Counted from the first letter of the stretch, positions 1,949 through 20,378 are shown. The stretch is 64,000 nucleotides of DNA from Candidatus Omnitrophota bacterium (GCA_022710715.1 JAKLGJ010000001.1:170041-234040); one strand, 5' to 3'. The notes: generated from the sequence alone by a model not told the origin. Numbers and translations: made by a program.

Positions 1949-1979
<31 letters not shown>

Positions 1980-4102: not shown

Positions 4103-4113
4103 AACGGTCCTAA
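3565..4113 (+). CDS. LAGLIDADG homing endonuclease (single-motif, about 182 aa), intron-encoded; start probably GTG 3565 (the ORF frame is open from 3430)
   Basis: Motif YYLAGFADGEGSF (LAGLIDADG) near the N-terminus, preceded by SD AGGAGG 5 nt upstream of GTG. The reading frame runs through the intron P7/P9 core and 11 nt into the downstream exon (stop TAA at 4111-4113). Confidence 0.75.
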   Translation: MKIETGYYLAGFADGEGSFNISFRPRQDYKSPWKVSLCFNISQKDKVILALYKRYLGCGTLRGRPDGVWYFEVNNFESIREKVIPFFRRYPFLSAKKKRDFAKFCELARLIKNENHLTKEGIKKILEIRRDMNDGGKRKYSEMEILSKLQESSETIRQTPGQSGDDIVRSSGKPEVNMNERS

Positions 4114-4116
4114 GGT

Positions 4117-4308
4117 TAACGTAATAACGCTAGCCTGCTTGGTAGTAATACCAAAGAATAATTACCAACTATATCGGTGAAGTCCTCGGTTGTATAGAGG
4201 ATAATACCGAGGGAAGTCGTAAATGACCCCGTAGAGACTACACGTTGGCTCCTGCGTAAAGCAGGATGAAGATATAGTCCACGCCAATAGTAATATTGGA
4301 TTAACGTG
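4117..4308 (+). mobile_element. Group I intron #2 in 23S (ORF-less, 192 nt), inserted after ...CCTAAGGT (E. coli about L1931)
   Basis: Exon AACGGTCCTAAGGT (4103-4116) is followed by 192 nt absent from E. coli, then AGCGAAATTCCTTGT. The 5' exon ends in U and the intron ends in G. P7 strands CGTAGAGACTACACG and GATGAAGATATAGTCC are present. Confidence 0.7.
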
Positions 4309-4878
4309 AGCGAAATTCCTTGTGGGGTAAGTTCCCACGCGCACGAATGGTGTAACAACCTGATCGCTGTCTCAAAGAGGGACTCGGCGAAATTGTAGTG
4401 GCGGTGAAGATGCCGTCTACCCGCATCAAGACGAAAAGACCCCAGAACCTTTACTGCAGCCTACCATTGGGTTTTGGTTTAATTTGTGTAGCATAGGTGG
4501 GAGACTTTGAAGCCCGGGCGCTAGCTCGGGCAGAGTCGCAATGTGAAATACCACCCTGATTGGACTAAAATTCTAACCTTCCGACCTGAATCGGCCGGGG
4601 GGACAGTGATAGGCGGGCAGTTTGACTGGGGCGGTTCCCTTCTAAAAAGTAACAAAGGGGCCCAAAGGTTGGCTCAAGTCGGTCGGCAATCGACTTAGGA
4701 GTGTAAGCGCATAAGCCAGCTTGACTGCAAATCCGACAGGACGCGCAGGTACGAAAGTAGGGGCTAATGATCCGGTGGTGAAATGTGGAATTGCCATCGC
4801 TCAACGGATAATAGGTACTCTGGGGATAACAGGCTTATCGGGCTCGAGAGTTCACATCGACAGCCCGGTTTGGCACCT

Positions 4879-5297
4879 CAACATCATGGGGTGGTACGGG
4901 AGCAATCCTGTACATGCATTGGCTAATAACGGTGGAGTCTTCTCCCGGCGCACGCGCCGGGATTGATAATACCGTGGGAAGTCTGCAGAACATAAGCAGT
5001 TATTTCAGTGGTCTTTTCTCTTGGTGACAAAGTCTCAATCGATAGGTCTAATACTTTGATCTCGAATACATACACTAATGGATGGTTCAAAGTTATTAGG
5101 ATGTCTTTTGCTGTTCTTTGCTCATCATGAGAAAGCCATGTTCTGTATGACCCCGTAACGACTGATAGTACGGACGCACGATCCGAGCGTTATACGTACT
5201 TGAGATAGCAGAATGTGTTGCTATCATACGCCAACTCCGCTTACTGCAAACGGAAGAAGATATAGTCTAATCCCATCCGAAAGGATGGACAAGATTG
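4879..5297 (+). mobile_element. Group I intron #3 in 23S (ORF-less, 419 nt), inserted within GGCACCT^CGATGTCGGCTC (E. coli about L2499)
   Basis: Collinearity break inside the conserved peptidyl-transferase-centre sequence. The 5' exon ends in U (4878) and the intron ends in G (5297). The 3' core GAAGAAGATATAGTCTAATCCCATCCGAAAGGATGG (P7 plus P9 hairpin) lies just before the 3' splice site. The AT-rich interior has no intact ORF. Confidence 0.7.
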
Positions 5298-5401: not shown

Positions 5402-6145
5402 AAATTGACCGTTGCTGTCTTTAAATCTGGCTATGTGCTGGAAAATCTGAGTATCTCATATTACTAATTGACGAAATAGTCTCTACATGATACTATGCAG
5501 TCGGGAGTGATAATATATGAGTGCAGATCACCAGCAGGAAAGGCCAAGCGGGATAGCATCATTCTATGTCAGTGGTTTTGTCGACGGAGAAGGCTGCTTT
5601 TCTATAACAATTCAGAAAAGTAAAAATGTGAAATTAGGGGTACAGGTTATTCCCGAGTTTCACGTCAGCCAACATCAACGCAGGACTGAAGTTCTTGAAG
5701 CAATCAAGGGTAAGTTTGGTTGTGGCTATATCAAAGCAAACAATCCGAATAACCCCAAAGATCTTACTTCAGTATACGTTGTTCGTAATTTAGCTGATCT
5801 TCGTGATAAAATCGTGCCGTTTTTTAAGAAATATCCTTTGTATTCGTCAAAGCAGCAGGACTTTGAGAAGTTTGCAAAAGTCGTGCATGCTATGAGTAAA
5901 AAGGACCATCTTGAAAAGAACGGTTTAAGCAGAATATTGAAACTATCATTCTCGATGAATGACAGCGGTAGGTATCGTAAACTGAAAATAGAAGATGTGC
6001 TGTCCAGTTTGGAATCCTCAGAGACTATACGCCAGAAGCTTGCTGTAAAGCAAGTTTAAGATATAGTCCGAACTGCATGGCGACATGCAGAGATTGGCAG
6101 AAATGCCCAATCCTTTTACATGACAATGTAGAAGTAACATAATTG
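5402..6145 (+). mobile_element. Group I intron #4 in 23S, inserted at CGTCGTGAGACAGT^TCGG (the I-CreI-type L2593 site); carries a LAGLIDADG ORF
   Basis: Break exactly at the classical L2593 homing site. The 5' exon ends in U (5401) and the intron ends in G (6145). Intron start AAATTGACCG resembles intron #1 start TGATTGACCG. P7 strands TCAGAGACTATACG (about 6018-6031) and TTTAAGATATAGTCC (6057-6071) are present. Confidence 0.8.
5517..6059 (+). CDS. LAGLIDADG homing endonuclease (single-motif, 180 aa), intron-encoded
   Basis: Motif FYVSGFVDGEGCF with ATG start and SD GGGAGTGA upstream. The C-terminal ...SSLESSETIRQ is encoded by the same 24-nt P7 core sequence as in intron #1. Size and architecture resemble I-CreI-family homodimeric enzymes. 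Confidence 0.8.
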   Translation: MSADHQQERPSGIASFYVSGFVDGEGCFSITIQKSKNVKLGVQVIPEFHVSQHQRRTEVLEAIKGKFGCGYIKANNPNNPKDLTSVYVVRNLADLRDKIVPFFKKYPLYSSKQQDFEKFAKVVHAMSKKDHLEKNGLSRILKLSFSMNDSGRYRKLKIEDVLSSLESSETIRQKLAVKQV

Positions 6146-6607
6146 TCGGTCTCTATCTGGTGTGGGCGTCAGGATATTTGAAGGGGAGTTCTCCTCAGTA
6201 CGAGAGGACCAGGAGAAGCGGACCTCCGGTGTTCCGGTTGTCTTGCCAAGGGCAAAGGCCGGGTAGCTATGTCCGTAAGAGATAAGCGCTGAAAGCATCT
6301 AAGTGCCAAACTCGCCCCAAGACTATATATCCCTGGGTCGCAAGACCCTGAAGGCACCTCGAAGACTACGAGGTTGATAGGCGCGGTGTGTAAGATCCGT
6401 AAGGATTTAAGCTAACGCGTACTAATTTGCCAATCGGCTTGTCCTTTAATTTTTTTAATTCAGGACTATTGTAGAACTTCTTAATTCTGTGGTTGTTGAA
6501 TTTCTCTAGACATGTTAATAGGGGAGACCGGAGCACTTTTGCACTTTCGCGCATCCGCGCTCAAGTGCAAAAAAGTTTCCTCTATTGTTTTGTCTAGAAA
6601 CACTTTT

Positions 6608-6723
6608 GGAGTGCCTTTGCCGCAAGGGTCACACCCGTTCCCATTCCGAATACGGTAGTTAAGCCTTGCTGGGCCGATGGTAGTGTATTCGTAAGGATAT
6701 GCTAGAGTAGGTCGGTGCTCCAT
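6608..6723 (+). rRNA. rrf: 5S rRNA
   Basis: GGAGTGCC...CCGTTCCCATTCCGAACACGG-like...GCCGATGGTAGTG...GAGTAGGTCGGTGCTCC. The termini are complementary and the length is about 116 nt. Confidence 0.85.
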
Positions 6724-7045: not shown

Positions 7046-7086
7046 AAGCCACGGAATGTATTTAACATTGCCGTGGCTTTTTTTTA
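7046..7086 (+). terminator. Hairpin with U-tract (AAGCCACGG-16 nt palindromic loop-CCGTGGCTT followed by TTTTTTT), 27 nt upstream of the RBS of the 1294-aa gene
   Basis: 9-bp stem with T-run. Could be a third operon terminator or an attenuator in the leader of the downstream gene. Confidence 0.45.
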
Positions 7087-7112
7087 CGGCTCACCCGAAA
7101 AAAGGAGAGAAG

Positions 7113-10100
7113 ATGAAACGACTACCGCTATTCATTCTGATTATCTGCTTTTCGACCATTGCCTGGGCGCAGGATGCGGTCCAGACTACATCTTCAAAGA
7201 CCATTGCCGCCACCGGGACAACGGCTAAGAAAAAAACGATGAAAAAGGTCAAGGACGCGGTTAAATCCGGCCAGGTCAAGACAGAAGCGGCCGCTTCTAC
7301 CGACGAAGCGAATCAACCGCCGGCTCGTCCGGGAGACGAAGAAAAGGATCCCGCGGTCTGGGCGGCTTATTACAAAGCGTATATCGCCTGGATGAAAACA
7401 CTGGGAACGGCAGAACGCCGCGCGGCCTGGAAGAACTTGTCCCGGGACTTGCTGGACAGGGTGAATTCGCATCCGGAGACGATCGGTTCCGCTGCCATGC
7501 AGGCGGTATTCAGAGGATTGACCGCGGAATTCAAAGCCATGTTCGCCGCGGACCGCGCGTACGACAAGAAGTATGCTGCGGTGGTGAATAACCTGGTGGA
7601 TGCCGGGGTCAAGTTTATTAAGACTGCGTCGTATAAGGCGTTGAGCCAGACGGACAGCGAGAACTTTATCAGGAGTTTTACCGGATTGGCCGTGGAGACC
7701 GCCTGGCAAAGATCGAATAACAGCTGGAACGGGCATGCTGTTGCGCAGATAGCCGCATTCTACAATGGCCTGATCGATTCCGGTTCCGCCGCTACCAAGC
7801 CTTTTGCGTTCAATCAATTGATGCATCTTTTCCGCACCGTGCGCTGGAACTCCAAGGAAGGCAATCCGGAACTGGGCGACCAGCTCCTCAAGCAGGCATT
7901 GCAGGGCGTTGATTCAAAAACGCTGATCAATGGGTTCAGAACCCGGGCCGGCAATACTGCGCTTGCCGCCGATGAACGCGGGCAGGCCGCGTGTTCCTTA
8001 AGCAATATTCTTTACCATCAGAGCAGCCTGGAAACGGCTTTCGGCGTAAAGCTCACGGATACCCAGGTTGTAAATATTACCGGAGATGTGACCGATGTGC
8101 TCAAAGGCGTCAACAGTAACTCCATCGCAATCAGCGACGCCATGCGTAACAGCCTGTTGCATCTTGCCGGTTGCGCCATCAATCAGAGTATCAACAGGGG
8201 TGAGCAAACCGCAGATCACAACCGTTTGTTCCAGCACGCCTATTTTAAATTTGCGCAGGCATCGCTTCAGAAGAGCGGCAATGCCTCTCTGCAGGCTACT
8301 GCGATCAATATGCTTACTTCGATCCGCAATGCGGCAGCGAAAAAAGACGACGCGAAACTCGCCGCTACCTGTAAAAAACTGCTTCTGGGCGACGTCTCCG
8401 ACCTGGATGGGTTCCTGGACAAGGGACAGGAGGAGATGGGCACTACGAAAAGCGCGGATCATGCCGCCTGGCTGGCCAGGGCCCTGGCGAATATCGCCGC
8501 GTTGAATAAGGCAAGCAAAACAGGCGCGGTGACCGACGCCCAGATCAAAGACATGGTCGCTGCAATCAAGGATTGGATTTCTGTCGAGGATAATCTGGAC
8601 AACATGCGTTTGCGGTCATGGCAGGCGGAGCTGTACTCCGCATTGGCCGAGCTGGCAAAACAGATTTACAAGAAAGGCGAAGCTTTGGGAAGCGATGCCC
8701 AACTGAAGAAGGATTTTGAGCAGATCTTCTCGACTATCGTCGGATTACAGGATTCCAAGGTCAAGGAGCTGGCTGCCAAATATGTGACCAGCCTGGCCGC
8801 CGACCTGCGGGAGCAGGGATATGGCGCTTTTGCCAACCGGCTGGAGATCTCCCTCTGTCCGGATTCCGCTTCCCTGATGGCCAAAGCCTGGGCGTATTTC
8901 AACAAGAAGAATTATGCCGCAGCCAGGGCGTTCTGCGAAGAGACGATCAGCCGGTACACCGCGGAAGCGCTGAAACAACAGGCGTCGCTTAAAGATTATG
9001 CGCCGAAAGGTAAAGAATCGCTGTACTGGGCTTTGAATGACGTGGGCACCGCGCACTTCATCCTGGGTAAGATTTACCGGGCGCAGGGACAATCAGACCA
9101 GGCTAGAGAAGAATTCAAGACCGTGATCAATAAATACGGTTTTGCCCAGTGCTGGGATAAGCAGGGGTGGTGGTGGAAAGTCAAGGATGCGGCTAAGAAG
9201 GAACTGTCCAGCATGAATTCAGAACCGGTGACCATGCCGGTGATCCCGGGGACCGGCTCTACCGACGCCAACGGGAATATCACCATTACCTTCAAGTCGG
9301 GAACGCTGGATAAGAGTAATTTGAGCGAGTTCTGGGCCAAAGTGACCATAGACGGCAAGACCGAGTACTGGGATCTGGGTAAGGGCGCGATCTCCGAAGA
9401 CGGCAAATCCGTGACTCTGAAATTCGATCCCAAGTACGACGGCAAGACCATAGCCATGCAGTTCTACGGGTTCGACAACAAAGGTAAACAGACGGGATAC
9501 AGCAATGCGATCAAGGTGAAGGTAGAATCTGCGACCTCCCCGGTGACCATGCCGGTGATCCCGGGGACCGGCTCTACCGACGCCAACGGGAACCTCACCG
9601 TTACTTTCAAGTCGGGGACGCTGGATAAGAGCAGGTTGAGCGGGTTCTGGGCCAAAGTGACCATAGACGGCAAGACCGAGTACTGGGATCTGGGTAAGGG
9701 CGCGATCTCCGAAGACGGCAAGTCCGTGACCCTGAAATTCGATCCCAAGTACGACGGCAAGACCATTACCATGCAGTTCTATGGATTCGACAATTCCGGT
9801 AAGCAAACAGGATACAGTAATGCGATCAAGGTCACGGTGGATTCCGCGCTGTCGCCGGTGACCATGCCGGTGATCCCGGGGACCGGTTCTACCGACGCCA
9901 ACGGGAACCTCACCGTTACTTTCAAATCGGGAACGCTGGATAAGAGCAGGTTGAGCGGGTTCTGGGCCAAAGTGACCATAGACGGCAAGACCGAGTACTG
10001 GGATCTGGGTAAGGGCGCGATCTCCGAAGACGGCACCTCGATCTTTTTGAATCTCGATTCCAAATACGGCGGCAAGACCGTCACTATGCAATTCTACGGG

Positions 10101-10997
10101 TTCGACACCGAAGGTAAACAAACCGGTTTCAGTAATGCCATCGCAGTGAAAGTCGAGACATCGGGAACAGGAGGGTTTTCCGGATTTGGCCAGCCGGAGC
10201 GTATCGGAGCAGGGGGATACACTGAACTCGGCTATACCTATGACGACACCATTTATTATTATGAGGATTTGGCGAACGCCACAGATAAGAAAGTAGTGAT
10301 GCTGGGCGGCAGTGATTCCTGGGAACTGACCGGGCCTGACGGATCGAAACTTCAACTCAATCCGTGGTCTGTCATCATCGCCAAGGGCGGCAAGTCAGTG
10401 GCCGATGTCATCCGGAAAGTCGAAGACGAATATGTGATAACCGGGGACGTTCAGATCCTGAATTTCCAGAATGTCTATCATTTCGAACGGCAGGATGATT
10501 ATGTTTTCAGGCCTGAAAATCAGGAACTGTATTGCGATTCCTATTCTTTTTCATCCGGCGCCGGTGTCGGCCTGCAGACATTGCCCAGAGAGCCGTATTA
10601 TCATATCGGGACCCCTGAACCGCAAAAAGTTGAGAAGGTGGTTAAGCCCGGATATGATATTTCGGGTCTGCCGCAGAACAAGGTTGTCTATCCTTCTTTT
10701 GACCTGCTGGGCGGCGCAGGCGTGGAAAATGTCCGGGCATTCGGATTCGGCACAAGCAGGGGCGGTGGCGGCTGGTATGTCATCGGGCCGGACGGGATGG
10801 AAATAGATCTGGTTTCCGGCAGCCGGATGGTGTTCGCTGACAACCCGAAAAACGCGCTTGAGTTCGTTTCCGCAGGGAAATATCGCATAACGAAGCCGGT
10901 AACCGTGCTCATTATGCTGGACGGTAATTATCTGGATAAGTATACGATTACGCCGGACAGCAAGACATATTTGGAATATCGGGAGTATTACAAGTAG
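7113..10997 (+). CDS. Large secreted repeat protein (1294 aa): signal peptide, N-terminal alpha-helical/TPR-like region, 3 x 105-aa tandem beta-rich repeats, C-terminal domain; function unknown
   Basis: ATG 7113 with SD AAAAGGAGAGAAG and an N-terminal MKRLPLFILIICFSTIAWAQ signal peptide. The repeats PVTMPVIPGTGSTDANGN..TFKSGTLDKS...YGFDN.GKQTGYSNAIKV are seen in translation. The ORF caller's upstream start at 7056 was rejected. Confidence 0.75.
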   Translation: MKRLPLFILIICFSTIAWAQDAVQTTSSKTIAATGTTAKKKTMKKVKDAVKSGQVKTEAAASTDEANQPPARPGDEEKDPAVWAAYYKAYIAWMKTLGTAERRAAWKNLSRDLLDRVNSHPETIGSAAMQAVFRGLTAEFKAMFAADRAYDKKYAAVVNNLVDAGVKFIKTASYKALSQTDSENFIRSFTGLAVETAWQRSNNSWNGHAVAQIAAFYNGLIDSGSAATKPFAFNQLMHLFRTVRWNSKEGNPELGDQLLKQALQGVDSKTLINGFRTRAGNTALAADERGQAACSLSNILYHQSSLETAFGVKLTDTQVVNITGDVTDVLKGVNSNSIAISDAMRNSLLHLAGCAINQSINRGEQTADHNRLFQHAYFKFAQASLQKSGNASLQATAINMLTSIRNAAAKKDDAKLAATCKKLLLGDVSDLDGFLDKGQEEMGTTKSADHAAWLARALANIAALNKASKTGAVTDAQIKDMVAAIKDWISVEDNLDNMRLRSWQAELYSALAELAKQIYKKGEALGSDAQLKKDFEQIFSTIVGLQDSKVKELAAKYVTSLAADLREQGYGAFANRLEISLCPDSASLMAKAWAYFNKKNYAAARAFCEETISRYTAEALKQQASLKDYAPKGKESLYWALNDVGTAHFILGKIYRAQGQSDQAREEFKTVINKYGFAQCWDKQGWWWKVKDAAKKELSSMNSEPVTMPVIPGTGSTDANGNITITFKSGTLDKSNLSEFWAKVTIDGKTEYWDLGKGAISEDGKSVTLKFDPKYDGKTIAMQFYGFDNKGKQTGYSNAIKVKVESATSPVTMPVIPGTGSTDANGNLTVTFKSGTLDKSRLSGFWAKVTIDGKTEYWDLGKGAISEDGKSVTLKFDPKYDGKTITMQFYGFDNSGKQTGYSNAIKVTVDSALSPVTMPVIPGTGSTDANGNLTVTFKSGTLDKSRLSGFWAKVTIDGKTEYWDLGKGAISEDGTSIFLNLDSKYGGKTVTMQFYGFDTEGKQTGFSNAIAVKVETSGTGGFSGFGQPERIGAGGYTELGYTYDDTIYYYEDLANATDKKVVMLGGSDSWELTGPDGSKLQLNPWSVIIAKGGKSVADVIRKVEDEYVITGDVQILNFQNVYHFERQDDYVFRPENQELYCDSYSFSSGAGVGLQTLPREPYYHIGTPEPQKVEKVVKPGYDISGLPQNKVVYPSFDLLGGAGVENVRAFGFGTSRGGGGWYVIGPDGMEIDLVSGSRMVFADNPKNALEFVSAGKYRITKPVTVLIMLDGNYLDKYTITPDSKTYLEYREYYK
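9225..10169 (+). repeat. Three tandem 315-bp direct repeats inside the CDS (units 9225-9539, 9540-9854, 9855-about 10169); the first two are about 97 % identical, the third diverges in its 3' half
   Basis: Period measured from CCGGTGACCATGCCGG at 9225, 9540 and 9855. The antisense ORFs 9464-9772 and 9779-10084 give near-identical translations, confirming DNA identity. Confidence 0.9.
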
Positions 10998-11994: not shown

Positions 11995-12687
11995 ATGAAA
12001 ATCAGAATTGCAGTAGGGATGGTAGTTGGGATCATGGTGTTTGTTGTCGGCGGGGCGATTTCTACCGCGTCGGCTTACACGGTCACCTGTCCCGATGCCA
12101 GTTTTAACGGCACCGGCGTACAGAAGTATGTTCAACTCGGGGAGAGGTGGGATCTGAATCTCGGTGATCTGGAGATAGCGTATACCGTGGATATGTCCGC
12201 ATTGACTCCTTCGTCCCAGTCCACGGTGTGGACTTCAGTCGGAGTGGCTAAGACTTTGCCTGATGAACGGGCATGGTTGAGTTCGAGCGTGAACACTACC
12301 TATTACAAAAACATCATGGCCGGATGGAACGTCGATGAGCGCAGTCCGGATGCCGGGTCGTATCTGCGGGTTGCGGAAGCGAGCACTCCTTCGGTTTACG
12401 ATATCGTGTTGCATTTCAGCAAAACCGACGTTAGTAATACCGCGCTCATGACCGGCTACGTCAACGGTGAAAAGATAGCGGGAGATGTTGTTTTTACCGC
12501 GGATCTGGCGCAGCTGGGTTTCTTCTACGAATATTCGTCGTCGGCTACCGATCCGGTTCACGGCGCAGTGACCATTTCCAATGTCGTCGCTTCGGGCGAG
12601 CGTTCGGTTGTGCCGGAGCCTTCCAGCATGATGCTGCTGGGAAGCGGTTTGTGCGGCTTGCTCGGTTTGTTGCGCAAAAGAGCGTAA
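11995..12687 (+). CDS. PEP-CTERM sorting-domain protein (exosortase substrate), secreted
   Basis: N-terminal signal peptide MKIRIAVGMVVGIMVFVVGGAISTASA. The C-terminus VPEPSSMMLLGSGLCGLLGLLRKRA is the canonical PEP motif plus TM helix plus RKR. SD GGGGGAAGG upstream. Confidence 0.8.
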   Translation: MKIRIAVGMVVGIMVFVVGGAISTASAYTVTCPDASFNGTGVQKYVQLGERWDLNLGDLEIAYTVDMSALTPSSQSTVWTSVGVAKTLPDERAWLSSSVNTTYYKNIMAGWNVDERSPDAGSYLRVAEASTPSVYDIVLHFSKTDVSNTALMTGYVNGEKIAGDVVFTADLAQLGFFYEYSSSATDPVHGAVTISNVVASGERSVVPEPSSMMLLGSGLCGLLGLLRKRA

Positions 12688-12730
12688 GTTATTTACAGGT
12701 TAAGCATATTTTCTTGCAGCGCGTTTCTCT

Positions 12731-12762
12731 GCCCGTCTGGCGAAAGCCAGGCGGGCTTTTTA
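12731..12762 (+). terminator. Terminator hairpin GCCCGTCTGG-CGAAAG-CCAGGCGGGC followed by TTTTT (paralogue of the 6872 element)
   Basis: Same stem, loop and U-G wobble position as the 6872-6905 element with compensatory T/A exchange. Lies between the convergent PEP-CTERM gene and the response-regulator gene. Confidence 0.6.
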
Positions 12763-12796
12763 ATTCTCGAGAGCTGATGTCCGAAAGGAGAAGATG

Positions 12797-13156
12797 TTAA
12801 AGCGCGGTCAGCTTATTCAGCAGATCCTGTACGCCCACGGGTTTGATATATAAACCGTCTATGGGGATCTCCTGTTCAACCCGGCCGGCATCATAGGCGT
12901 GAGCGGTAACCACAAAGATCTTGGTTTGGGGGTATTTTTCTTTGATGATCCTGGCTGCGGCCAGTCCGTGCATACCTTTCATTACCAGGTCGAGCAGAAC
13001 GATGTCTGCCGGTTCTTTCTCGAGCAATTGTAATGCCTGTTCGGCGCTGTCTGCGATAGTTACCTGAAAACGGCGGAGAGAAAGATAGCGTTTAAGATAA
13101 TAGCCGACATCCGGCTCGTCGTCTACCAGCATGATTTTGGTTTGATTGGTAATCAT
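12797..13156 (-). CDS. Single-domain response regulator (CheY-like receiver)
   Basis: MITNQTKIMLVDDEP...DIVLLDLVMKGMHG...KIFVVTAH receiver-domain motifs (DD, D, T, K). Start at the internal ATG 13156 with SD AGGAGG (ORF frame open to 13222). Confidence 0.8.
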   Translation of the reverse strand: MITNQTKIMLVDDEPDVGYYLKRYLSLRRFQVTIADSAEQALQLLEKEPADIVLLDLVMKGMHGLAAARIIKEKYPQTKIFVVTAHAYDAGRVEQEIPIDGLYIKPVGVQDLLNKLTAL

Positions 13157-13351
13157 AACGCCCTCCTCTTTGAGAATACTGCAGCTCCGATCAAAGTATA
13201 GCATATTTTGACTTATTTTCAACTCAATGTTGAACTAATCGGCAAGCAATGCAGCAGCACAAATATATTGCTCTCCAGCCGGTTTGGCGTTACAATAATC
13301 ACATGTTTTATACGCAAGTGAGTACTGCGGTTAACGCAAGAGGTGGAAGGT

Positions 13352-13750
13352 ATGGCTGGTGCAAGGAAGAAGAAGGCAAAGAAACAAGCAGTAATCAAGA
13401 TCGATTGCCGGGAATGCAGTAAGAAGCCGACCTGCTGCCGGCGCGGCGCCTGGGCGGATATCGAGGAAGCAAAACGGATCGTACCTCTGGGGTTGAAAGG
13501 GGAGTTTTTCCAACTCGAGCGGGATGCGGATTTTCCTTCGGGTTTTCGCATCGGCACCAGTTATGAAGATGAACCCTGCACCTTTCTTGATCCCGACGGC
13601 CTGTGTTCGATCCATAAGATCGACTATAATCTGAAACCCAGGATTTGCCGCGAATTTCCCTATGAAAATAAGAAACTGTCTCCCTACGCCAGAATATTGT
13701 GCTCGTTATTCAAATCGAAGACGAAGAAAAGCGGTCAGTCCAGGAAATAG
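13352..13750 (+). CDS. YkgJ/UPF0153-type CxxCxxCC putative Fe-S or Zn cluster protein
   Basis: CRECSKKPTCC near the N-terminus plus additional conserved Cys (CTFLDPDGLCSIH, CREFPY). ATG 13352 with SD AGAGGTGGAAGG. Confidence 0.55.
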   Translation: MAGARKKKAKKQAVIKIDCRECSKKPTCCRRGAWADIEEAKRIVPLGLKGEFFQLERDADFPSGFRIGTSYEDEPCTFLDPDGLCSIHKIDYNLKPRICREFPYENKKLSPYARILCSLFKSKTKKSGQSRK

Positions 13751-13773
13751 TTCGTTAGCCGGGAGCATCTGTC

Positions 13774-14670
13774 GTGTTTCAGCGTACGTTAAGAAGGAAG
13801 ATCGGTGAGCTGTTGATTGAACGCGGGATAATTACTGCCGAACAGCTCGAACGCGCCCTGGAGGAGCAGCGGCACAAAGGCGGCTATATCAGCCAGCATC
13901 TGGTGGCTATGCAATTCGCCACCGAACTCGATATCGCGATCTGTCTTTCCAACCAGTACAATTTCGCTTATCTACCCCTCAACCATTACGCCATCCCGGC
14001 GGAGATCCTGACCACCATTCCTTTCAAATGGATCCGGCTCTATTCTCTTATTCCCATCGATAAAATCGGAAATTCCCTGACCGTGGCCATGGCCGATCCT
14101 TTGAACGAAGGGGTTATCCAGATGCTTCGCCAGATTACCGGCTGTGAGTTGAAAGTTTTCATCAGTACCTACGGCGAAATTAACGAAGCCATCGGTCGTT
14201 ATTTCAAGGATGAATTGTCCAGGGTCAAAGAGATCGTTCTCGCGGACATGAGTAAATTGACCGTGATCAATGAATTTATCCAGACCAAAGCGTATACAGG
14301 AGGGGAGCGCAGACAGTTTCTCCGGTTGAACGTGAAACTGATCTTCGAGTTTAATTTCTACGGCCAGTCCTTCCGATCCGAAACCCTCAATGTCAGTTTC
14401 GGGGGTATATGTTTTCTGTCGCCGGTTTCCATACCGGTGGATAATGATATCGTTTGTAAAGTCCATCTGTCCCCGGACCGCGCCGTTGATTGTATTATCA
14501 AAGTCATGAGGGTTCAAAGCCGCAGGTCTGAAGGAGAAGTGAGCGGTTTGTTTGAAATCGCCGGCGTTTTCGCTTTCATCAATGATGAGGAGAAAATGCA
14601 GATGGTCGAATTCTTGAAATCGCAACTGGCTTGCAATGGTGCCCGCACAACCGTCGAGGGAAAACAATGA
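13774..14670 (+). CDS. MshEN-like (T2SS-E N-terminal domain) + PilZ domain protein; predicted c-di-GMP receptor
   Basis: The N-terminus LLIERGIITAEQLERALEEQ...LVAMQFATELDIAICLSNQYNFAYLP is a GspE-N/MshEN-type fold. The C-terminus has PilZ signatures RRQFLRLNV and NVSFGGICF (RxxxR...D/NxSxxG). GTG start with SD GGGAG. Confidence 0.65.
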   Translation: MFQRTLRRKIGELLIERGIITAEQLERALEEQRHKGGYISQHLVAMQFATELDIAICLSNQYNFAYLPLNHYAIPAEILTTIPFKWIRLYSLIPIDKIGNSLTVAMADPLNEGVIQMLRQITGCELKVFISTYGEINEAIGRYFKDELSRVKEIVLADMSKLTVINEFIQTKAYTGGERRQFLRLNVKLIFEFNFYGQSFRSETLNVSFGGICFLSPVSIPVDNDIVCKVHLSPDRAVDCIIKVMRVQSRRSEGEVSGLFEIAGVFAFINDEEKMQMVEFLKSQLACNGARTTVEGKQ

Positions 14671-15350
14671 AAATACGCGTGAAGTCCGTCAAATGGATAC
14701 TGCTGGCGGCATATCTGTTGATCGTCACGGGATTCTTCGGCCTGGCCTTCAGCGGTAAACTTCCCGATGATAACCCGGTCTGCGACGTTTTTTACGGATT
14801 ACGGGGACACCTGTTCTGGACGTTGCTGATCCTTGTGCTGACGTTTGCATCGCAAGCGTTTTTTATCTGGACTCTGGGTACGGTTGATCTGTGCAAGCCG
14901 TTACGCCGGCGCCGGCTTATCGGACCGGCGGCGATGGCCGCGCTGATGTTGACCACGCTGGTCAGCGGTATCATCCTGGCACTGGCGGAATTTTTCGACT
15001 ATTATCCCAGGCACGGGGAAGTTCTGTTCTGGACCGTCCTGACGATTAACTGGTTGTTATGGAGCGTAGTATTCCTGCTGGCGTATAAAAATACGCCGCG
15101 TTTGAAGATTTTCTCGCAGTGGTTGACGGTTTTGCTGGCCGGAAGCCTGCTGGAATTGTTGATTACCATCCCGGCGCATATAGTGGTGAGCCGGCGTCCG
15201 GGGTGTTTCGCCGGAATGTATACCGGGCTGGGTATTGTGGCCGGGATACTGGTGATGTTCTGGGCATTCGGGCCGGGGATCATTTTCCTGTTCTTTTTTC
15301 AGAGAGCGACAGGTAATGCCGGTCAAAATAACACTAAGGGGGGGATGTAA
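14667..15350 (+). CDS. Polytopic inner-membrane protein (about 6 TM), unknown function
   Basis: Hydrophobic helices throughout. ATG 14667 overlaps the stop of the upstream gene (ATGA), and its own stop overlaps the pilin start (TAATG), suggesting translational coupling. Confidence 0.55.
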   Translation: MKIRVKSVKWILLAAYLLIVTGFFGLAFSGKLPDDNPVCDVFYGLRGHLFWTLLILVLTFASQAFFIWTLGTVDLCKPLRRRRLIGPAAMAALMLTTLVSGIILALAEFFDYYPRHGEVLFWTVLTINWLLWSVVFLLAYKNTPRLKIFSQWLTVLLAGSLLELLITIPAHIVVSRRPGCFAGMYTGLGIVAGILVMFWAFGPGIIFLFFFQRATGNAGQNNTKGGM

Positions 15351-15955
15351 TGAGGGTACGAGGGTTCACGCTGGTGGAGTTGATCGTGGTCATTGCAATC
15401 ATCGCTGTTCTGGCGGCGGTAATCGCGCCGCAGGCGTATCGGGCGGTTGAGAAGGCGAAGATCGCCAAGGCGCATACTGATTACAGGGCGATACATACCG
15501 CGACCTACGCATTGCACGGGGATACCGGCGATTGGCCGCACGGCGGGAATAGCCGGGAGAGGGTAATCTGGTCCGGCTTAATGCGGAACCCTCCTTTGTG
15601 GAATGCCGCAGGGACGCTTAACGTCCCCTATGGCGGATGGAATGGTCCCTATCTGGAGAAGTTCTCCGGAATGCATCCATGGGGAGGGATATATATGTTC
15701 TCGACTAATGCAAATTTCGGCCGTGGCACAGCAGGCGAGCTGGCTGTGGAATTCGAAAATATGTGTTTCCCCAACGGCGCGACTTCAAACTGCCCTGTTC
15801 CACTGTCGTCCCAGCTTATCATCGATCGCTCTCTTGATGATGGCGTCAATAATGTCGGAGAGGTGCAGCGGACATCCTGGAATGATCTGCATTGGGTGAT
15901 CATATGGGATAAATGCGCTCCCGGAGTTGTTGCCTGTGAGAACAGCAGTTCCTGA
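15350..15955 (+). CDS. Prepilin-type N-terminal cleavage/methylation domain protein (type IV pilin / pseudopilin-like) #1
   Basis: MRVRG|FTLVELIVVIAIIAVLAAVIAP: class III leader peptide with G-1, F+1, E+5 and a hydrophobic alpha-1 helix. Confidence 0.85.
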   Translation: MRVRGFTLVELIVVIAIIAVLAAVIAPQAYRAVEKAKIAKAHTDYRAIHTATYALHGDTGDWPHGGNSRERVIWSGLMRNPPLWNAAGTLNVPYGGWNGPYLEKFSGMHPWGGIYMFSTNANFGRGTAGELAVEFENMCFPNGATSNCPVPLSSQLIIDRSLDDGVNNVGEVQRTSWNDLHWVIIWDKCAPGVVACENSSS

Positions 15956-15966
15956 TAGTGTTTTTT

Positions 15967-15994
15967 GTTGACAGCTCTCTGTTTTGAGGTAAAA
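15967..15994 (+). promoter_or_regulatory. Sigma-70-like promoter TTGACA-16 nt-TAAAAT
   Basis: Near-consensus -35 and -10 boxes with a 16-nt spacer in the intergenic region after pilin #1. Positioned to drive the micro-ORF at 16096. Confidence 0.45.
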
Positions 15995-16095
15995 TACTCT
16001 ATGAAGGGGAGGGAGTATGCCGTTCAAGTAGCGCAGTAAAGAAGAGCAACTTTCAGATGATGAGGGTTGCTTTATTTTTTAAAAAGGTGGTGAGT

Positions 16096-16167
16096 ATGTC
16101 ATGTATGACCTGCGCGGCGCATAAAAAGAAAAAAGCCAAGCTGAAAACCAAAAAAAAGAAGAAGTAG
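16096..16167 (+). CDS. Putative micro-protein (23 aa) MSCMTCAAHKKKKAKLKTKKKKK: CxxC followed by a poly-Lys tail
   Basis: ATG with SD AGGTGG 6 nt upstream, a promoter 100 nt upstream and a strong terminator 90 nt downstream. Not in the 60-aa-minimum ORF track; speculative. Confidence 0.3.
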   Translation: MSCMTCAAHKKKKAKLKTKKKKK

Positions 16168-16258
16168 TTGTGATTCGCGGGTTCCTACCCTACCTCAGTT
16201 CTCGCAGGGGCGAACGTCTTTGCCTCTGCGAGGGCAGACCCGCGCCTGCGGCGCGGTA

Positions 16259-16289
16259 AAACTTATCACCTGGTGATAAGTTTTTTTTT
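16259..16289 (+). terminator. Rho-independent terminator AACTTATCACC-TGGTGATAAGTT followed by TTTTTTTTT
   Basis: Perfect 11-bp stem and a T9 tract. Confidence 0.6.
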
Positions 16290-16306
16290 GAACGAAAGGA
16301 AAAAAG

Positions 16307-16876
16307 ATGAGAAAAGGTTTTACGCTGGTGGAATTGATCGTGGTGATCGCGATCATCGCTATCCTGGCCGCGGTGATCGCGCCCAACGCTTTTAAGGCGA
16401 TCGAAAAAGCGAAACTAGCCAAGACCCAGCGGGATCTTAAGTCTATTAAGACCGCAGTGTCGGCTTTGTACGCCGACACCGGGAAATTTCCCAACGGGTG
16501 TCCTGCTTTCAGCTCTGCCAATCCCGAGGTTTATTTCAATCAGCCTCAAGCCGGGCTGGTGCGCCGGCCGACGGTGGGCGTGGTCGAAGCCCCTTCCTGT
16601 GAATGGAGACAGAGTGAAGTGAATGCCTGGGACGGTCCGTATCTGGAAAGTACCAACGTCCTGGATTTCTGGAAAACCGCGTATATGTTCGATCCGGATT
16701 ATGTCCCGTGCGGTACGACCGCCGGCAATTGCCCGGCTACTTCTTCACCGTACACTGAATGCCGGGCGGCTTGCGGCGGTGCTTTCAATTGCTATCCGCC
16801 TATGCTGGTCAGTTTTGGCCCGGATAAACTGGAATATACCTGCGACGATATCCTGGTCCAGTTGACCTTGAAATAA
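16307..16876 (+). CDS. Prepilin-type pilin/pseudopilin-like protein #2
   Basis: MRKG|FTLVELIVVIAIIAILAAVIAPNAF; SD GAAAGGAAAAAAG. Confidence 0.85.
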   Translation: MRKGFTLVELIVVIAIIAILAAVIAPNAFKAIEKAKLAKTQRDLKSIKTAVSALYADTGKFPNGCPAFSSANPEVYFNQPQAGLVRRPTVGVVEAPSCEWRQSEVNAWDGPYLESTNVLDFWKTAYMFDPDYVPCGTTAGNCPATSSPYTECRAACGGAFNCYPPMLVSFGPDKLEYTCDDILVQLTLK

Positions 16877-16888
16877 GAAAGGTTGCAG

Positions 16889-17440
16889 ATGATCGAAAAA
16901 GGTTTTACCCTGGTGGAATTGATCGTGGTGATCGCGATCATCGCTATCCTGGCCGCGGTGATCGCGCCCAACGCGTTCCGGGCCATCGAGAAGGCGAAAT
17001 GCGCTCAAGCCGTTAAAGACGCCAAGACCATTCGTACCGCTGCCGCCGAATACTATGCCGATACCGGACAGTGGCCGCCTGTTTACCGTTTAACCACCCC
17101 GATCAACCCTTTTCTGACCAACCCGCCGGTGACCGGATGGGCAGGGCCGTATCTGGACAAATGGAAGCCTCATCCGTGGTCAGGTCATATAGGGTGGGAT
17201 GCGACTCTTGATCTTGATGCGAACGGTAAAGCAGACGGCTGTGTCGTTTACGATGATGATCAGCCGGGGACAAGTGCTTCCAATAACGCAGGGAGGATTC
17301 CGCGCAAGTCCATGGAGAATATCGATCTGGTCCTGGATGACGGGAATCTTTCCCGTGGTATGGTCCAGGGAGACGGTCTGGGATTGCTTTCCGCGGCAGG
17401 TGAACTGGTGATCATGGTTATACATGATAACAATGGCTGA
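16889..17440 (+). CDS. Prepilin-type pilin/pseudopilin-like protein #3
   Basis: MIEKG|FTLVELIVVIAIIAILAAVIAPNAFRAIEKAK; SD AAGAAAGG. The ORF track starts at an upstream TTG 16883. Confidence 0.85.
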   Translation: MIEKGFTLVELIVVIAIIAILAAVIAPNAFRAIEKAKCAQAVKDAKTIRTAAAEYYADTGQWPPVYRLTTPINPFLTNPPVTGWAGPYLDKWKPHPWSGHIGWDATLDLDANGKADGCVVYDDDQPGTSASNNAGRIPRKSMENIDLVLDDGNLSRGMVQGDGLGLLSAAGELVIMVIHDNNG

Positions 17441-17459
17441 CGGCATTGCAGGAGGAAAG

Positions 17460-18011
17460 ATGAAACAAGGTTTTACCCTGGTGGAATTGATCGTGGTGAT
17501 CGCGATCATCGCTATCCTGGCCGCGGTGATCGCGCCCAACGCGTTCCGGGCCATCGAAAAAGCGAAAGTAGCCAAAGTGGAAACAGATCTTAAGACTTTC
17601 AAGACCGCCGCGCTGTCCTATTACTCGGATACCGGTCAGTGGCCGGTTGACGGCGCCACCTGGCTTACCGCTGAAGAGACCGCGATGTTCATCAGCGGCG
17701 CGGGGCAGCCGACAGGATGGGACGGTCCGTATCTGGAACGCTGGCCGGATCCGCCCTGGCATTGTAATTTCGTGTATGGCGGCGTGCCTATGGTCGGTAC
17801 GTATGATTGGGATCATTGGCCCACCTGCGCCGCCTGGGGTATGGGCGGCGGGGATACTACCGCTGTGGCTGCCAGTTGTATTCCGCGGACAGCCGCAACT
17901 ATGGTCGACCAGCATCAGGATGACGGGAATCTAGCGGGCGGCAGGGCGCGTTTCAACGCCGGTTATGCCGGAGGGTTCCTGAACGTGATTATTGTCGGCT
18001 GCGGCTCGTAG
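17460..18011 (+). CDS. Prepilin-type pilin/pseudopilin-like protein #4
   Basis: MKQG|FTLVELIVVIAIIAILAAVIAPNAFRAIEKAK; SD AGGAGGAAAG. The 95 bp after the start are essentially identical to gene #3. Confidence 0.85.
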   Translation: MKQGFTLVELIVVIAIIAILAAVIAPNAFRAIEKAKVAKVETDLKTFKTAALSYYSDTGQWPVDGATWLTAEETAMFISGAGQPTGWDGPYLERWPDPPWHCNFVYGGVPMVGTYDWDHWPTCAAWGMGGGDTTAVAASCIPRTAATMVDQHQDDGNLAGGRARFNAGYAGGFLNVIIVGCGS

Positions 18012-18527
18012 ATGGGCAACGCTATGATCAGGACTCTATGCGGTTTGCCGGTCAGTCTGGTTTTCTTTTGCGCGGTCTGCGCAGCAGCTGCGGAAGCGCC
18101 TTCCGGTCAGACAGTCACTGCCTCTACCGATAAAACCAGTTATTCTCTGAAAGAAACAATCAAAATCAGCCTGAAGAATAGCGGCGCAGAGAGCGTTTAT
18201 TCGGTTGCCGCCAGCGCGACACCGGCCTTCGCCATTATTAATTTCGAAAAAAACAAGAATCAGTGGGTCTGGGATGCCTTGCCGCTGCATTGCAACCGTC
18301 TGGAATGCGATACTCCCCATGACCTGCCGGTAGAGATCCAGGCAGGGAGCACCCGCACGTTCAGCTGGCAGCCGCGTGTTTATTCAAAACGCGGTTATCT
18401 TGATCCCGAACCGGGTTTATACCGGCTTACATTAATGTATCAGACGCGCAAAGGCTCCGAAGAAAAAGAGTGGACCTGGCGTACGGTCAAATCCAACGCA
18501 TTTACCCTTCACCAGGGAGGACGCTGA
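18012..18527 (+). CDS. Secreted hypothetical protein (signal peptide)
   Basis: MGNAMIRTLCGLPVSLVFFCAVCAAAAEA signal peptide; no recognisable domain. Confidence 0.5.
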   Translation: MGNAMIRTLCGLPVSLVFFCAVCAAAAEAPSGQTVTASTDKTSYSLKETIKISLKNSGAESVYSVAASATPAFAIINFEKNKNQWVWDALPLHCNRLECDTPHDLPVEIQAGSTRTFSWQPRVYSKRGYLDPEPGLYRLTLMYQTRKGSEEKEWTWRTVKSNAFTLHQGGR

Positions 18528-18949
18528 TGGACCAGAATGAGAGAATGCGGCTGCAGAAACTCTACGGCGAATTTTCCGACGATGGACTGATCGAAATGCT
18601 TAAGCAGGACAGCGCCGGTTATGAAGCGGGAGTGTACGATGTGCTCCTGGAAGAAGCGCGCCGGCGCAATATCCCGCAGGAGCAATTTCAGCCTTTGCCG
18701 CAACCGGCTGCAGCCCTCGAGCAGCCCGGGGGAGCGATGGAGCAGCCTGCGCAGGAAGGGCAATTCCGTTCATTTATGTCGGTGGAGACTGAAGAGGACC
18801 GGATGTTTGTGGAGGGGGTGTTTAGAGCGTCGCACATTCCCTATTATATCCAGGCGGATGCTTCCGGGCAGGGATTTCAGGTTATGGTGCAAGAGGGGTG
18901 GTTGAAACAAGCAGAGGAGCTGTTTCAGGATGAGGCACCCGGCGCTTGA
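18527..18949 (+). CDS. Hypothetical protein; C-terminal half resembles DUF2007-type small signal-transduction fold (weak)
   Basis: ATG 18527 overlaps the upstream stop (TGATGG). The ORF track starts at 18470. Confidence 0.4.
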   Translation: MDQNERMRLQKLYGEFSDDGLIEMLKQDSAGYEAGVYDVLLEEARRRNIPQEQFQPLPQPAAALEQPGGAMEQPAQEGQFRSFMSVETEEDRMFVEGVFRASHIPYYIQADASGQGFQVMVQEGWLKQAEELFQDEAPGA

Positions 18950-19117
18950 TAGGAATTGCGCCGGTGCTCCCTTGTGGTCGCACCCGGCGCGTAACAGGAG
19001 TTGCGCCGGTGCTCCCTTGTGGGCGCACCCGGCGCGGAATTGCCCCCAACGTCTTACCCCCAACGCGTTACACCCCGCGCTAATAGGAGTTGCGCGGGTG
19101 TTTTCCTTGTGGAAAAC
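18936..19117 (+). repeat. Tandem array of about 45-bp hairpin repeats (3.5 copies): CACCCGGCGC-13 nt loop-GCGCCGGTGCTCCCTTGTGG
   Basis: Units at 18936-18980, 18981-19025 and a partial at 19026, with a diverged fourth unit at about 19075-19117. Each unit has a 9-10-bp GC-rich inverted repeat. The first unit overlaps the stop codon of the upstream CDS. Confidence 0.8.
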
Positions 19118-19349
19118 AAAAAACCCAAGCGCATGCTTGGGAATTTTGTAGGTGATAGGCCTGGTAGCTCACGCTATCTGCAGAAAACCTCCTGTTGTCA
19201 CCTGCAATGAGATTTCGTTGTCCTGCTACATAAGAAGTATGGCATATTTTTTTTGAAATTTCAAGGGCCGGGAAAAATTTTTTTGATTGCCGGCCGCGGG
19301 GATATACACTAGAATACAATGAAGATCCTTAACTTTCAGGAGAGCGCTC

Positions 19350-20378
19350 ATGGGATTTGATTATATCAGGAAAATTCCTTCCGCAAACGAAGTCGTTGAA
19401 GAAATGCCTCTGTCCGCCGAACTGGCGGCGATCAAAAAAAAGCGGGATGAAGAAATCCGCGCCGTATTTGCCGGTCAGAGCGGGAAATGGCTGATCATTA
19501 TCGGTCCCTGTTCCGCGGATAACGAAGACGCGGTCTGCGAGTATGTCGGTCGCCTGGCGGGTTTACAGGAGAAGGTCAAAGAGAAGCTTATCCTGATCCC
19601 CAGGATCTATACCAATAAACCGCGCACTACCGGAGAAGGGTACAAAGGCATGATGCATCAGCCTGACCCGAATGAGGCGCCGAATATCGTGGAGGGGCTG
19701 AAAGCTTTGCGGCGCATGCATATCAGGATCTTGCGGGATTCTCACCTGACTGCCGCCGACGAGATGCTCTATCCGAGCAACTATCCCTACCTGGAAGATA
19801 TCTTGAGCTATGTGGCTATCGGCGCCCGATCGGTGGAAAATCAGCAGCACCGTCTGACGGTCAGCGGTCTGGATATACCGGTAGGGATGAAAAATCCCAC
19901 CAGCGGAGATCTGAACGTAATGTTCAATTCGGTACAGGCGGGACAAACCGCACACGTATTCATTTACCGCGGCTGGGAGGTTAAAACTACCGGCAATCCC
20001 CTGACGCATTGCATTCTGCGCGGAGCGGTCAATCATCACGGGCAGAATATTCCTAATTACCATTATGAAGATTTGATCCGCAGTAGCGAGATGTATTTGA
20101 AACGCGGGCTGGAGTTTCCCGCATTGATCATCGATACCAATCACGCCAACTCCGGCAAACAGTTCGACCAGCAACCCCGGATCGCCGTAGAGATCGTCGA
20201 GAGCATGAAGAATTCTCCGGTGTTGCGGAATATGGTCAAGGGATTGATGATCGAAAGCTACCTGGCGGAAGGCGCGCAGGATACGGATGGCCTGGTTTTC
20301 GGCAAGTCCATCACTGACCCTTGCCTGGGATGGGAAGCGTCGGAAAAACTCGTTTTGCATCTGGCAGATGCTCTGTGA
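19350..20378 (+). CDS. aroG: 3-deoxy-7-phosphoheptulonate (DAHP) synthase, class I (AroG/F/H type)
   Basis: IIGPCS, KPRTT, GARS, ILRG and IIDTNHANS motifs; SD AGGAGAG. The exact isozyme is not determinable. Confidence 0.85.
   Translation: MGFDYIRKIPSANEVVEEMPLSAELAAIKKKRDEEIRAVFAGQSGKWLIIIGPCSADNEDAVCEYVGRLAGLQEKVKEKLILIPRIYTNKPRTTGEGYKGMMHQPDPNEAPNIVEGLKALRRMHIRILRDSHLTAADEMLYPSNYPYLEDILSYVAIGARSVENQQHRLTVSGLDIPVGMKNPTSGDLNVMFNSVQAGQTAHVFIYRGWEVKTTGNPLTHCILRGAVNHHGQNIPNYHYEDLIRSSEMYLKRGLEFPALIIDTNHANSGKQFDQQPRIAVEIVESMKNSPVLRNMVKGLMIESYLAEGAQDTDGLVFGKSITDPCLGWEASEKLVLHLADAL

Follow-up and report, generated by a model that had tools for sequence, protein, structure and literature searches.

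Gene Content of the Locus

The stretch of DNA examined here, 64,000 nucleotides of Candidatus Omnitrophota bacterium (GCA_022710715.1, JAKLGJ010000001.1:170041-234040) and referred to throughout as the window, carries at positions 12797-18011 a compact run of genes in which a predicted soluble receptor for the messenger cyclic di-GMP (c-di-GMP) stands directly before a membrane protein and four prepilins. The receptor is a fusion of an MshEN domain with a PilZ domain, and its relation to the pilins beside it is the subject of this report. An open reading frame (ORF) scan, Pfam, NCBIfam and the stored gene calls of the source contig, a JGI metagenome contig of 1.62 Mb (Ga0116241_10000002), agree on the genes of this region. 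The gene set listed in a preliminary description of the locus, made from the sequence alone (a divergent receiver, a CxxCxxCC protein, an MshEN plus PilZ protein, a membrane protein and four prepilins), is present in full, each gene where it had been placed.

On the minus strand, a stand-alone response-regulator receiver of 119 amino acids (12797-13156; Pfam Response_reg, 4.2e-20), without a second or output domain, is divergent from the plus-strand genes. On the plus strand follow a cysteine-rich CxxCxxCC protein of the YkgJ type (13352-13750, 132 amino acids; PF03692, 33.5 bits against a cutoff of 23), the MshEN-PilZ protein (13774-14670), a six-transmembrane (6-TM) protein (14667-15350), prepilin 1 (15350-15955), a leader of 351 bp (15956-16306), and prepilins 2, 3 and 4 (16307-16876, 16889-17440 and 17460-18011). 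The stop codon of the receptor gene overlaps the start codon of the 6-TM gene as ATGA, and the 6-TM stop overlaps the start of prepilin 1 as TAATG. Because these codons overlap, the receptor, the 6-TM protein and prepilin 1 are probably co-expressed in the source organism. The translational coupling claimed in the preliminary description thus holds at these two junctions, but not for prepilins 2-4, which are separated by the 351-bp leader with its own promoter-like site. A secreted protein of 171 amino acids (18012-18527, plus strand) lies outside the pilin block and marks the return to conserved synteny, its orthologues standing next to DAHP synthase.

The window was annotated by the Pfam domains of its called genes over 7056-64000. 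Among these genes there is no pilus ATPase (T2SSE), platform protein (T2SSF), secretin or prepilin peptidase (peptidase A24), as the preliminary description had observed, nor is there any gsp gene. The genes of this region are housekeeping genes, including those for fatty-acid, leucine and histidine biosynthesis, RecA, AlaRS, SecDF and similar proteins. The diguanylate cyclase with GAF and GGDEF domains noted earlier is real (called gene 47676-48839, minus strand; Pfam GAF and GGDEF), its translation has an intact RYGGEEF site, and it is a possible source of c-di-GMP 33 kb away.

The MshEN-PilZ Receptor

The receptor is a protein of 298 amino acids with a GTG start. Both of its domains are recovered well above cutoff, as the preliminary description had proposed they would be: MshEN (PF05157) at residues 64-149 with 62.3 bits against 23.1 (4.4e-17), and PilZ (PF07238) at residues 178-280, positions 14305-14613, with 36.6 bits against 22.5 (6e-9). 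The PF00437 ATPase domain was not found in the protein, which ends after PilZ; it is not an assembly ATPase of the PilB, MshE or GspE type. The PilB family model TIGR02538 matches (1.9e-18) over model positions 1-155 only. The NfrB model NF008411 also matches, over receptor residues 7-155; for the N-terminal half, the scores against PilB far exceed those against NfrB and GspE. When a profile of 109 family members was compared with the Protein Data Bank (PDB), PilB N-termini came first (Geobacter PilB, 9e-29), followed by Thermus PilF, Myxococcus PilB and VcMshE (5HTL, 2e-16).

The fold agrees with this assignment. An AlphaFold2 model (predicted local distance difference test score, pLDDT, 82; linker 160-180 disordered) was superposed by Foldseek on the MshEN domain of VcMshE (5HTL) with a template-modelling score of 0.85 and a root-mean-square deviation of 2.1 Å, showing the MshEN fold of a four-helix MshEN_N and an alpha/beta MshEN_C part. 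Its C-terminal half matches the six-stranded beta-barrels of the c-di-GMP-bound PilZ domains 4XRN and 4RT0 with a score of about 0.8, and the Foldseek matches include the PilZ domains of Alg44, PA and YcgR. The structural comparison suggested in the preliminary description therefore came out in favor of both domains.

The PilZ half is canonical, with RRQFLR at residue 179 and NVSFGG at residue 206. Across the family, RRxxxR is found in 109 of 109 members and [DN]xSxxG in 103 of 109, and this makes c-di-GMP binding by the PilZ domain likely. The MshEN half is more equivocal. The reference motif consists of two 24-residue copies of RLGxxhhxxGhhxxxxLxxxLxxQ with a 5-residue spacer (Wang et al. 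2016), and the spacing in the receptor is exact: motif I at residues 9-32, spacer at 33-37 and motif II at 38-61, together 53 residues at positions 13798-13956. With the MshEN_N model NF053729, whose cutoff is 38 bits, this region scores 54.3. Motif I agrees with the published motif in its relaxed form (K9-I10-G11, G18, L25, L29, Q32). Motif II keeps I39, I54, L58 and Q61 and departs at its positions 1, 3 and 10, with Y38 for Arg38, S40 for Gly40 and Q47 for Gly47. Across the family, the published motif is fitted by 17 of 109 family members for motif I and by 1 of 109 for motif II, and the family has a signature of its own, GGYxSQHL, in which Y38, S40 and G36 are nearly invariant and G37 is invariant. 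Since the numbering of the receptor coincides with that of VcMshE, published residue roles can be transferred to it (PMC5013675). In VcMshE, the backbone amides of Gly11 and Gly40 contact guanine, and G11I abolishes binding (PMC5013675). As Y38, S40 and Q47 replace R38, G40 and G47, the second guanine site may be altered. Binding of c-di-GMP by the MshEN half is plausible, and this altered half-site makes it uncertain.

The receptor belongs to a sizeable family. When 1.84 billion representatives were searched exhaustively with its profile, 197 proteins were recovered at E<=1e-30. All named homologues of about 300 amino acids with the same architecture come from metagenome-assembled genomes of Candidatus Omnitrophota. 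The MshEN-PilZ tandem also forms the C-terminus of larger proteins of 370-1030 amino acids, whose N-terminal regions are unannotated or coiled-coil. Larger proteins that bear the tandem are P0342, P0343, P0365, P0385 and P0392, the named ones (P0342 and P0343) being from Omnitrophota; in P0392 the tandem is N-terminal and joined to a DUF7305/adhesin-like region. Some genomes (L021 and L027) have tandem copies of the MshEN-PilZ gene. The size of the family, the larger proteins and the tandem copies argue that the MshEN-PilZ tandem is a characteristic building block of c-di-GMP signalling in Omnitrophota. No open-access paper describing or naming such a fusion was found, and to this extent the novelty claimed for it in the preliminary description stands. 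MshEN domains detached from an ATPase were already known (PMC5013675).

The 6-TM Protein, the Prepilins and Their Leader

The 6-TM protein has 227 amino acids and belongs to an uncharacterised family. Six hydrophobic helices are seen by hydropathy and in its AlphaFold2 model (pLDDT 84). No Pfam or NCBIfam family was matched above cutoff, and the model had no fold match in the PDB at E<=0.001. An identity as a known transporter or as a pilus platform protein (T2SSF/PilC) was considered and rejected for want of any sequence-family or fold match. The protein has 85 homologues, none with a Pfam domain, from Omnitrophota, Elusimicrobia and Planctomycetota, the named members including Phycisphaerae. 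In three other genomes the family occurs in unrelated contexts, with no pilins and no PilZ. The overlapping arrangement of 6-TM gene and prepilin 1 is repeated only in L114 and L115, two short contigs from very close relatives, whose 6-TM proteins are 92% and 76% identical to that of the window.

The four prepilins are predicted type IV pilin-like proteins. Their class III signal peptide has a short basic leader that ends in G (-1); F follows at +1 and E at +5, within a hydrophobic alpha1-N segment. Each has the cleavage site G/FTLVE (the slash marks the cut), and all four carry FTLVELIVVIAIIA after the glycine. The N_methyl model is above cutoff in 4 of 4, and the proteins share a GspG-like core, GW.GPYL...PW, while being 41-45% identical among themselves. 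Prepilin 1 (201 amino acids, leader MRVRG/F) is GspG-like, with N_methyl at 1.9e-7 and 54 bits against the GspG model TIGR01710. Prepilin 2 (189 amino acids, leader MRKG/F), also GspG-like, has 8 cysteines, N_methyl at 8e-8 and a T2SSG match of 25.7 bits against a cutoff of 21. Prepilin 3 (183 amino acids, leader MIEKG/F) has N_methyl at 3e-7 and 53.7 bits against TIGR01710. Prepilin 4, 183 amino acids from an ATG behind AGGAGG and with the leader MKQG/F, is the most GspG-like of the four (T2SSG, 33.1 bits against 21; TIGR01710, 69 bits). The equivalog cutoff of TIGR01710, 88.85 bits, is missed by all four (54-69 bits), and by this measure the prepilins are not GspG equivalogs. Orthologues of prepilin 4 (P0209 and P0208, 62-63% identical) occur in a three-pilin array and at a single-gene locus among housekeeping genes (L042 and L043); neither an ATPase nor a receptor gene was found near these two pilin loci.

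A separate observation concerns the composition of the pilins. Phenylalanine, tryptophan and tyrosine make up 10-12% of three of the four mature proteins, with aromatic-free gaps of less than 40 residues. Such a content lies within the range that some authors use to flag 'conductive' pilins; the proteins here, at about 180 amino acids, are far longer than known e-pilins.

Only prepilin 1 is coupled to the genes upstream, and the 351-bp leader sets prepilins 2-4 apart. By consensus scans, the leader holds a promoter-like site at 15968-15995 (11 of 12 positions matching the sigma-70 promoter consensus), a hairpin with a T-run at 16043-16073, and three further hairpins, the last of which is terminator-like (16258-16284). 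It also includes a called gene of 36 codons (16057-16167), which encloses a cysteine- and lysine-rich ORF of 23 codons (MSCMTCAAHKKKKAKLKTKKKKK). The leader is conserved in L114 (1125-1485), to which it is 91% identical. Over its last 130 nt there is a single loop-base difference, with the three hairpins and the last stem followed by T9 retained, and the peptide of the 23-codon ORF is changed at only 2 of 23 residues. The fold z-score of the leader RNA is -4.0. The leader could act as an attenuator, or it could encode a small RNA or a small protein. A c-di-GMP riboswitch or other known RNA was looked for with Rfam over 12600-19400, at the gathering score and at E<=1, and rejected, as only a chance-level match to CrcZ was returned.

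Conservation of the Neighbourhood

For a comparison of the surroundings of the receptor gene, species-representative genomes supplied 32 loci and metagenomes another 70, each with flanks of at most 10 kb. Two Paenibacillus loci encoding MshEN-only proteins were excluded, L035 and the window were added, and collapsing at 85% identity gave 71 lineages, of which 43 have flanking sequence of 5 kb or more. The gene order in the window is a lineage-specific juxtaposition and represents no conserved pilin-control module. A 6-TM gene adjoins the receptor gene in 0 of the 70 other lineages, and tblastn found no match for the 6-TM protein or the pilins in any collected related locus. The first 30 Omnitrophota genome loci gave no prepilin motif and no tblastn match for either; among the 70 metagenome loci, a permissive scan for the prepilin motif was positive only in L048, L091 and L096. 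The preliminary description had let its proposal of a c-di-GMP-controlled pilin module stand or fall with the conservation of the cassette in relatives. The cassette is missing from them, the linkage being absent in the other 70 lineages, and the proposal of a conserved module therefore falls.

The closest relatives with sequence 3' of the receptor gene (L001-L004, L035, L044-L048 and L051, at 53-59% identity) keep YkgJ, the 171-amino-acid gene, DAHP synthase and RecG, and have no 6-TM gene and no pilins. In L035, the genes RecG, RsmD, CoaD, YceD, L32, PlsX and FabH come after the 171-amino-acid gene and DAHP synthase. What lies between the receptor and DAHP synthase varies among these relatives and never includes pilins. 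An orthologue of the YkgJ protein (50-69%) adjoins the receptor in L001, L002, L009, L048 and L071, lying downstream there and upstream in the window. Orthologues of the 171-amino-acid protein (37-45%) adjoin DAHP synthase in L001, L003, L004, L044-L046 and L051, again with no pilins present.

No partner gene of the receptor is conserved across the family: when neighbouring ORFs of 31 relatives and the window were clustered all against all, even the most widespread family reached no more than 7 of the 32 loci. Neighbours that recur are GH94, chorismate synthase, HisG, RpoD, the nuclease SNase, Cpn10 and small PilZ proteins. The commonest immediate neighbour is a gene for a GH94-family glycan phosphorylase of 887 amino acids, which lies directly 3' of the receptor in 6 lineages; the loci of this clade are L015-L019, L028, L084 and L088, and a small PilZ gene sometimes stands in between. 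Two further linkages were considered and rejected. The response regulator has only weak, non-orthologous matches of 26-27% in L001 and L048. Orthologues of the GAF-GGDEF cyclase (49-51%) do lie 6-8 kb from MshEN-PilZ in one deep clade (L024-L030 and L101-L103), where the proximity belongs to a block of synteny with RpoD and others; in the window the two genes are 33 kb apart.

Links to Type IV Pili in Other Genomes

In a few lineages the receptor gene does lie near genes for type IV pili. In L091 (57-10879, Ga0247841_10008345) and its relative L096, it closes a complete type IVa pilus cluster, whose order in L091 is a PilM/N fusion, PilO, a PilP-like protein, secretin, PilB, PilC, four pilins, a PilZ protein of 131 amino acids and MshEN-PilZ. 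The PilB of the L091 cluster has a fully canonical double MshEN motif. L021 has a split PilB (12534-14268), in which an ATPase-only T2SSE protein of 377 amino acids is followed directly by a stand-alone MshEN protein of 195 amino acids whose MshEN_N-like helices are duplicated; two MshEN-PilZ genes stand in tandem 2-4 kb upstream of the split PilB. In L048, minor-pilin-like genes are found 4-8 kb downstream of the receptor. In total, 4 of the 43 lineages with 5 kb or more of flanking sequence, the window included, have type IV pilus-related genes within 10 kb, which may be a real enrichment or chance.

Type IVa pilus genes are present in most Omnitrophota (PMC10066038), and in Xanthomonas citri a PilZ protein binds the N-domain of PilB (PMC8389850). 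Given these two points and its own PilB-like N-domain, the most likely target of the receptor is the type IV pilus. A soluble sensor acting on a pilus machine encoded elsewhere, as the preliminary description had it, is thus plausible from the PilB-like N-terminal half and the L091/L096 cluster, but it is not tied to a conserved pilin cassette.

Comparison with Known Systems

The MshEN domains of VcMshE and of PilB and PilF (5HTL, 5ZFR, 5TSG and 8PDK) share with the receptor the two-subdomain fold, the 24+5+24 spacing, the numbering and motif I. They differ in having an ATPase domain where the receptor has PilZ, and in having R38, G40 and G47 where the receptor has Y38, S40 and Q47. In the PilB-PilZ-FimX complex of X. 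citri (7LKM), too, an MshEN-type N-domain, that of PilB, is joined by a PilZ-fold protein in the regulation of a type IV pilus motor (PMC8389850), and Foldseek matches the receptor model to 7LKM chains at an E-value of about 1e-7. In X. citri the two are separate polypeptides, whereas here they are fused, and the model does not imply a domain-domain contact. Additionally, the PilZ of X. citri does not bind c-di-GMP and its PilB N-domain is without binding motifs, whereas the receptor has canonical PilZ motifs.

MshEN also occurs outside secretion ATPases in the glycosyltransferase-MshEN protein NfrB, in REC-MshEN proteins and as a stand-alone domain (PMC5013675, PMC8669469). The partner in NfrB and REC-MshEN is an enzyme or a receiver; in the receptor it is a second c-di-GMP receptor domain, without an output domain. 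In overall plan, the receptor resembles YcgR, MotI/DgrA, MrkH and VCA0042 (PilZN-PilZ), which are also small and soluble, with an accessory domain before a C-terminal canonical PilZ barrel, and MotI (5VX6) and YcgR (5Y6F) are among its fold matches. Two-domain PilZ receptors of the YcgR type exert their effect by attaching to a motor or to DNA. In them, a PilZN/YcgR_N barrel serves as accessory domain, and a single c-di-GMP dimer is bound jointly by this barrel and PilZ; the accessory domain of the receptor is instead a helical MshEN with a potential binding site of its own. The window pilins share a short leader, the G/FTLVE site and the core with GspG and with the orphan GspG-like arrays of Omnitrophota and the PVC group; they are longer, at 180-200 against about 140 amino acids for GspG, and no GspE, GspF, GspD or Pil genes are nearby.

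Other Features of the Window

Several features elsewhere in the window may be recorded. The 23S rRNA gene (1464-4947) exceeds the model in length by about 560 nt. Within it lies the core of a group I intron (Rfam RF00028, 58.6 bits; 4107-4300), with a LAGLIDADG endonuclease ORF (9e-21; 3430-4113) ahead of the core. A second LAGLIDADG ORF (4e-28; 5517-6059) lies in the unusually long 23S-5S spacer of 1.66 kb, and the last feature of this rRNA region is at 6607-6723. A secreted protein of 1313 amino acids (7056-10997) has three near-identical tandem repeats of about 105 amino acids (SPVTMPVIPGTGSTDANGN...) and faint TPR matches. Just upstream of the locus, at 11995-12687, is a PEP-CTERM-anchored protein of 230 amino acids (PF07589, 4e-7).

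Interpretation

Our preferred reading, to which we give a probability of roughly 55%, is that two things of different history meet here: a soluble c-di-GMP receptor that is conserved and may target the type IV pilus motor, and an insert of a 6-TM gene and orphan pilins that is peculiar to the lineage. The receptor gene is a phylum-wide gene of Omnitrophota, in which a PilB-type MshEN is fused to a canonical PilZ, and it stands at its usual syntenic position (YkgJ ... DAHP synthase-RecG-RsmD-CoaD-YceD-PlsX-FabH). A lineage-specific block of 3.3 kb, composed of the 6-TM gene and four tandemly duplicated GspG-like prepilins, would have been inserted just 3' of it; we infer insertion rather than repeated loss. 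The block is one of the 'orphan' pilin arrays also found in other Omnitrophota. Its pilins would have to be processed by a prepilin peptidase and assembled by a machine of the type IVa pilus or one like the type II secretion system, all encoded outside the window. The receptor, the 6-TM protein and prepilin 1 are probably co-transcribed and translationally coupled, and prepilins 2-4 follow behind a conserved structured leader. c-di-GMP, for example from the GAF-GGDEF cyclase, would likely bind the PilZ domain and perhaps, with less certainty, the MshEN domain. The receptor would then work through protein contacts, the likeliest target being the motor or platform of the type IV pilus (PilB, PilM or PilC), on which its PilB-like N-domain could dock or where it could compete with PilB.

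Certain observations count against this reading. The overlapping stop and start codons tie the expression of the receptor to that of at least prepilin 1, as a dedicated module would. The nearby pilus-related genes in 4 of 43 lineages could be a real enrichment, and in motif II of MshEN the published residues R38, G40 and G47 are replaced. Because most of the related contigs are short, the absence of the cassette covers the available flank and is weaker than absence within 10 kb. The sampled relatives with sequence 3' of the receptor are no closer than 61%.

The codon overlaps bear most directly on the idea of a dedicated c-di-GMP-controlled pilin module, in which the 6-TM protein might anchor the sensor, and the sensor would gate the delivery or assembly of these very pilins by a machine encoded elsewhere. 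The link of the 6-TM gene to prepilin 1 is kept in L114 and L115 together with the leader, and in L091 and L096 MshEN-PilZ comes right after pilins and a small PilZ gene in a type IVa pilus cluster, as such a module would have it. We nevertheless hold it to be improbable, as the cassette is absent from all other sampled lineages, including the closest relatives with the same flanking synteny. The components also part company elsewhere, the 6-TM family occurring without pilins or PilZ in three other genomes and the orthologous pilins without the receptor, and prepilins 2-4 have a leader and promoter-like site of their own.

The opposite reading, by which the adjacency is meaningless, draws on the variability of the neighbourhood: the receptor family would control a process unrelated to pili, for instance the metabolism of the envelope or of glycans or some housekeeping function, and the pilin block would have landed in a variable spot. 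The neighbours of the receptor do vary by clade and are mostly housekeeping genes, the stretch from receptor to DAHP synthase differs in every close relative, and a GH94 glycan phosphorylase gene lies directly 3' of the receptor in 6 lineages. MshEN domains are also known to control glycosyltransferases such as NfrB (PMC8669469), whose model NF008411 the receptor matches. This would leave unexplained why the N-terminal half is far closer to PilB than to NfrB or GspE, and why pilus-related genes stand near the receptor, in differing arrangements, in three other lineages (L091/L096, L021 and L048). Binding between a PilZ protein and the PilB N-domain moreover has precedent (PMC8389850). We regard this explanation as unlikely, though less so than the dedicated module.

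A bolder extension of the preferred reading may be offered tentatively, as something we would not ourselves expect to hold in full. The MshEN-PilZ family could be a phylum-wide two-site sensor, with a high-affinity MshEN and a lower-affinity PilZ, in which a free-standing copy of the PilB N-domain docks on the type IVa pilus motor or platform, or competes for it, and so sets pilus extension and thereby host attachment.

Significance for Omnitrophota

If this were true, the fusion would be a 'Rosetta stone' for the contact between the PilB N-domain and PilZ known from Xanthomonas. From the receptor one might learn how a single protein responds to two concentration ranges of one messenger, and how MshEN domains act apart from their ATPase. 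A small protein of PilZ and MshEN only, conserved across a whole candidate phylum, has apparently gone unstudied. The gene order in the window is striking, yet it belongs to one lineage only and should not be presented as a new conserved system of pilin control. Omnitrophota are uncultured, ultra-small nanobacteria that are probably host-dependent, and they are believed to attach to their hosts by means of their type IVa pili. A c-di-GMP switch acting on the pilus machine of Omnitrophota would give a handle on their lifestyle.

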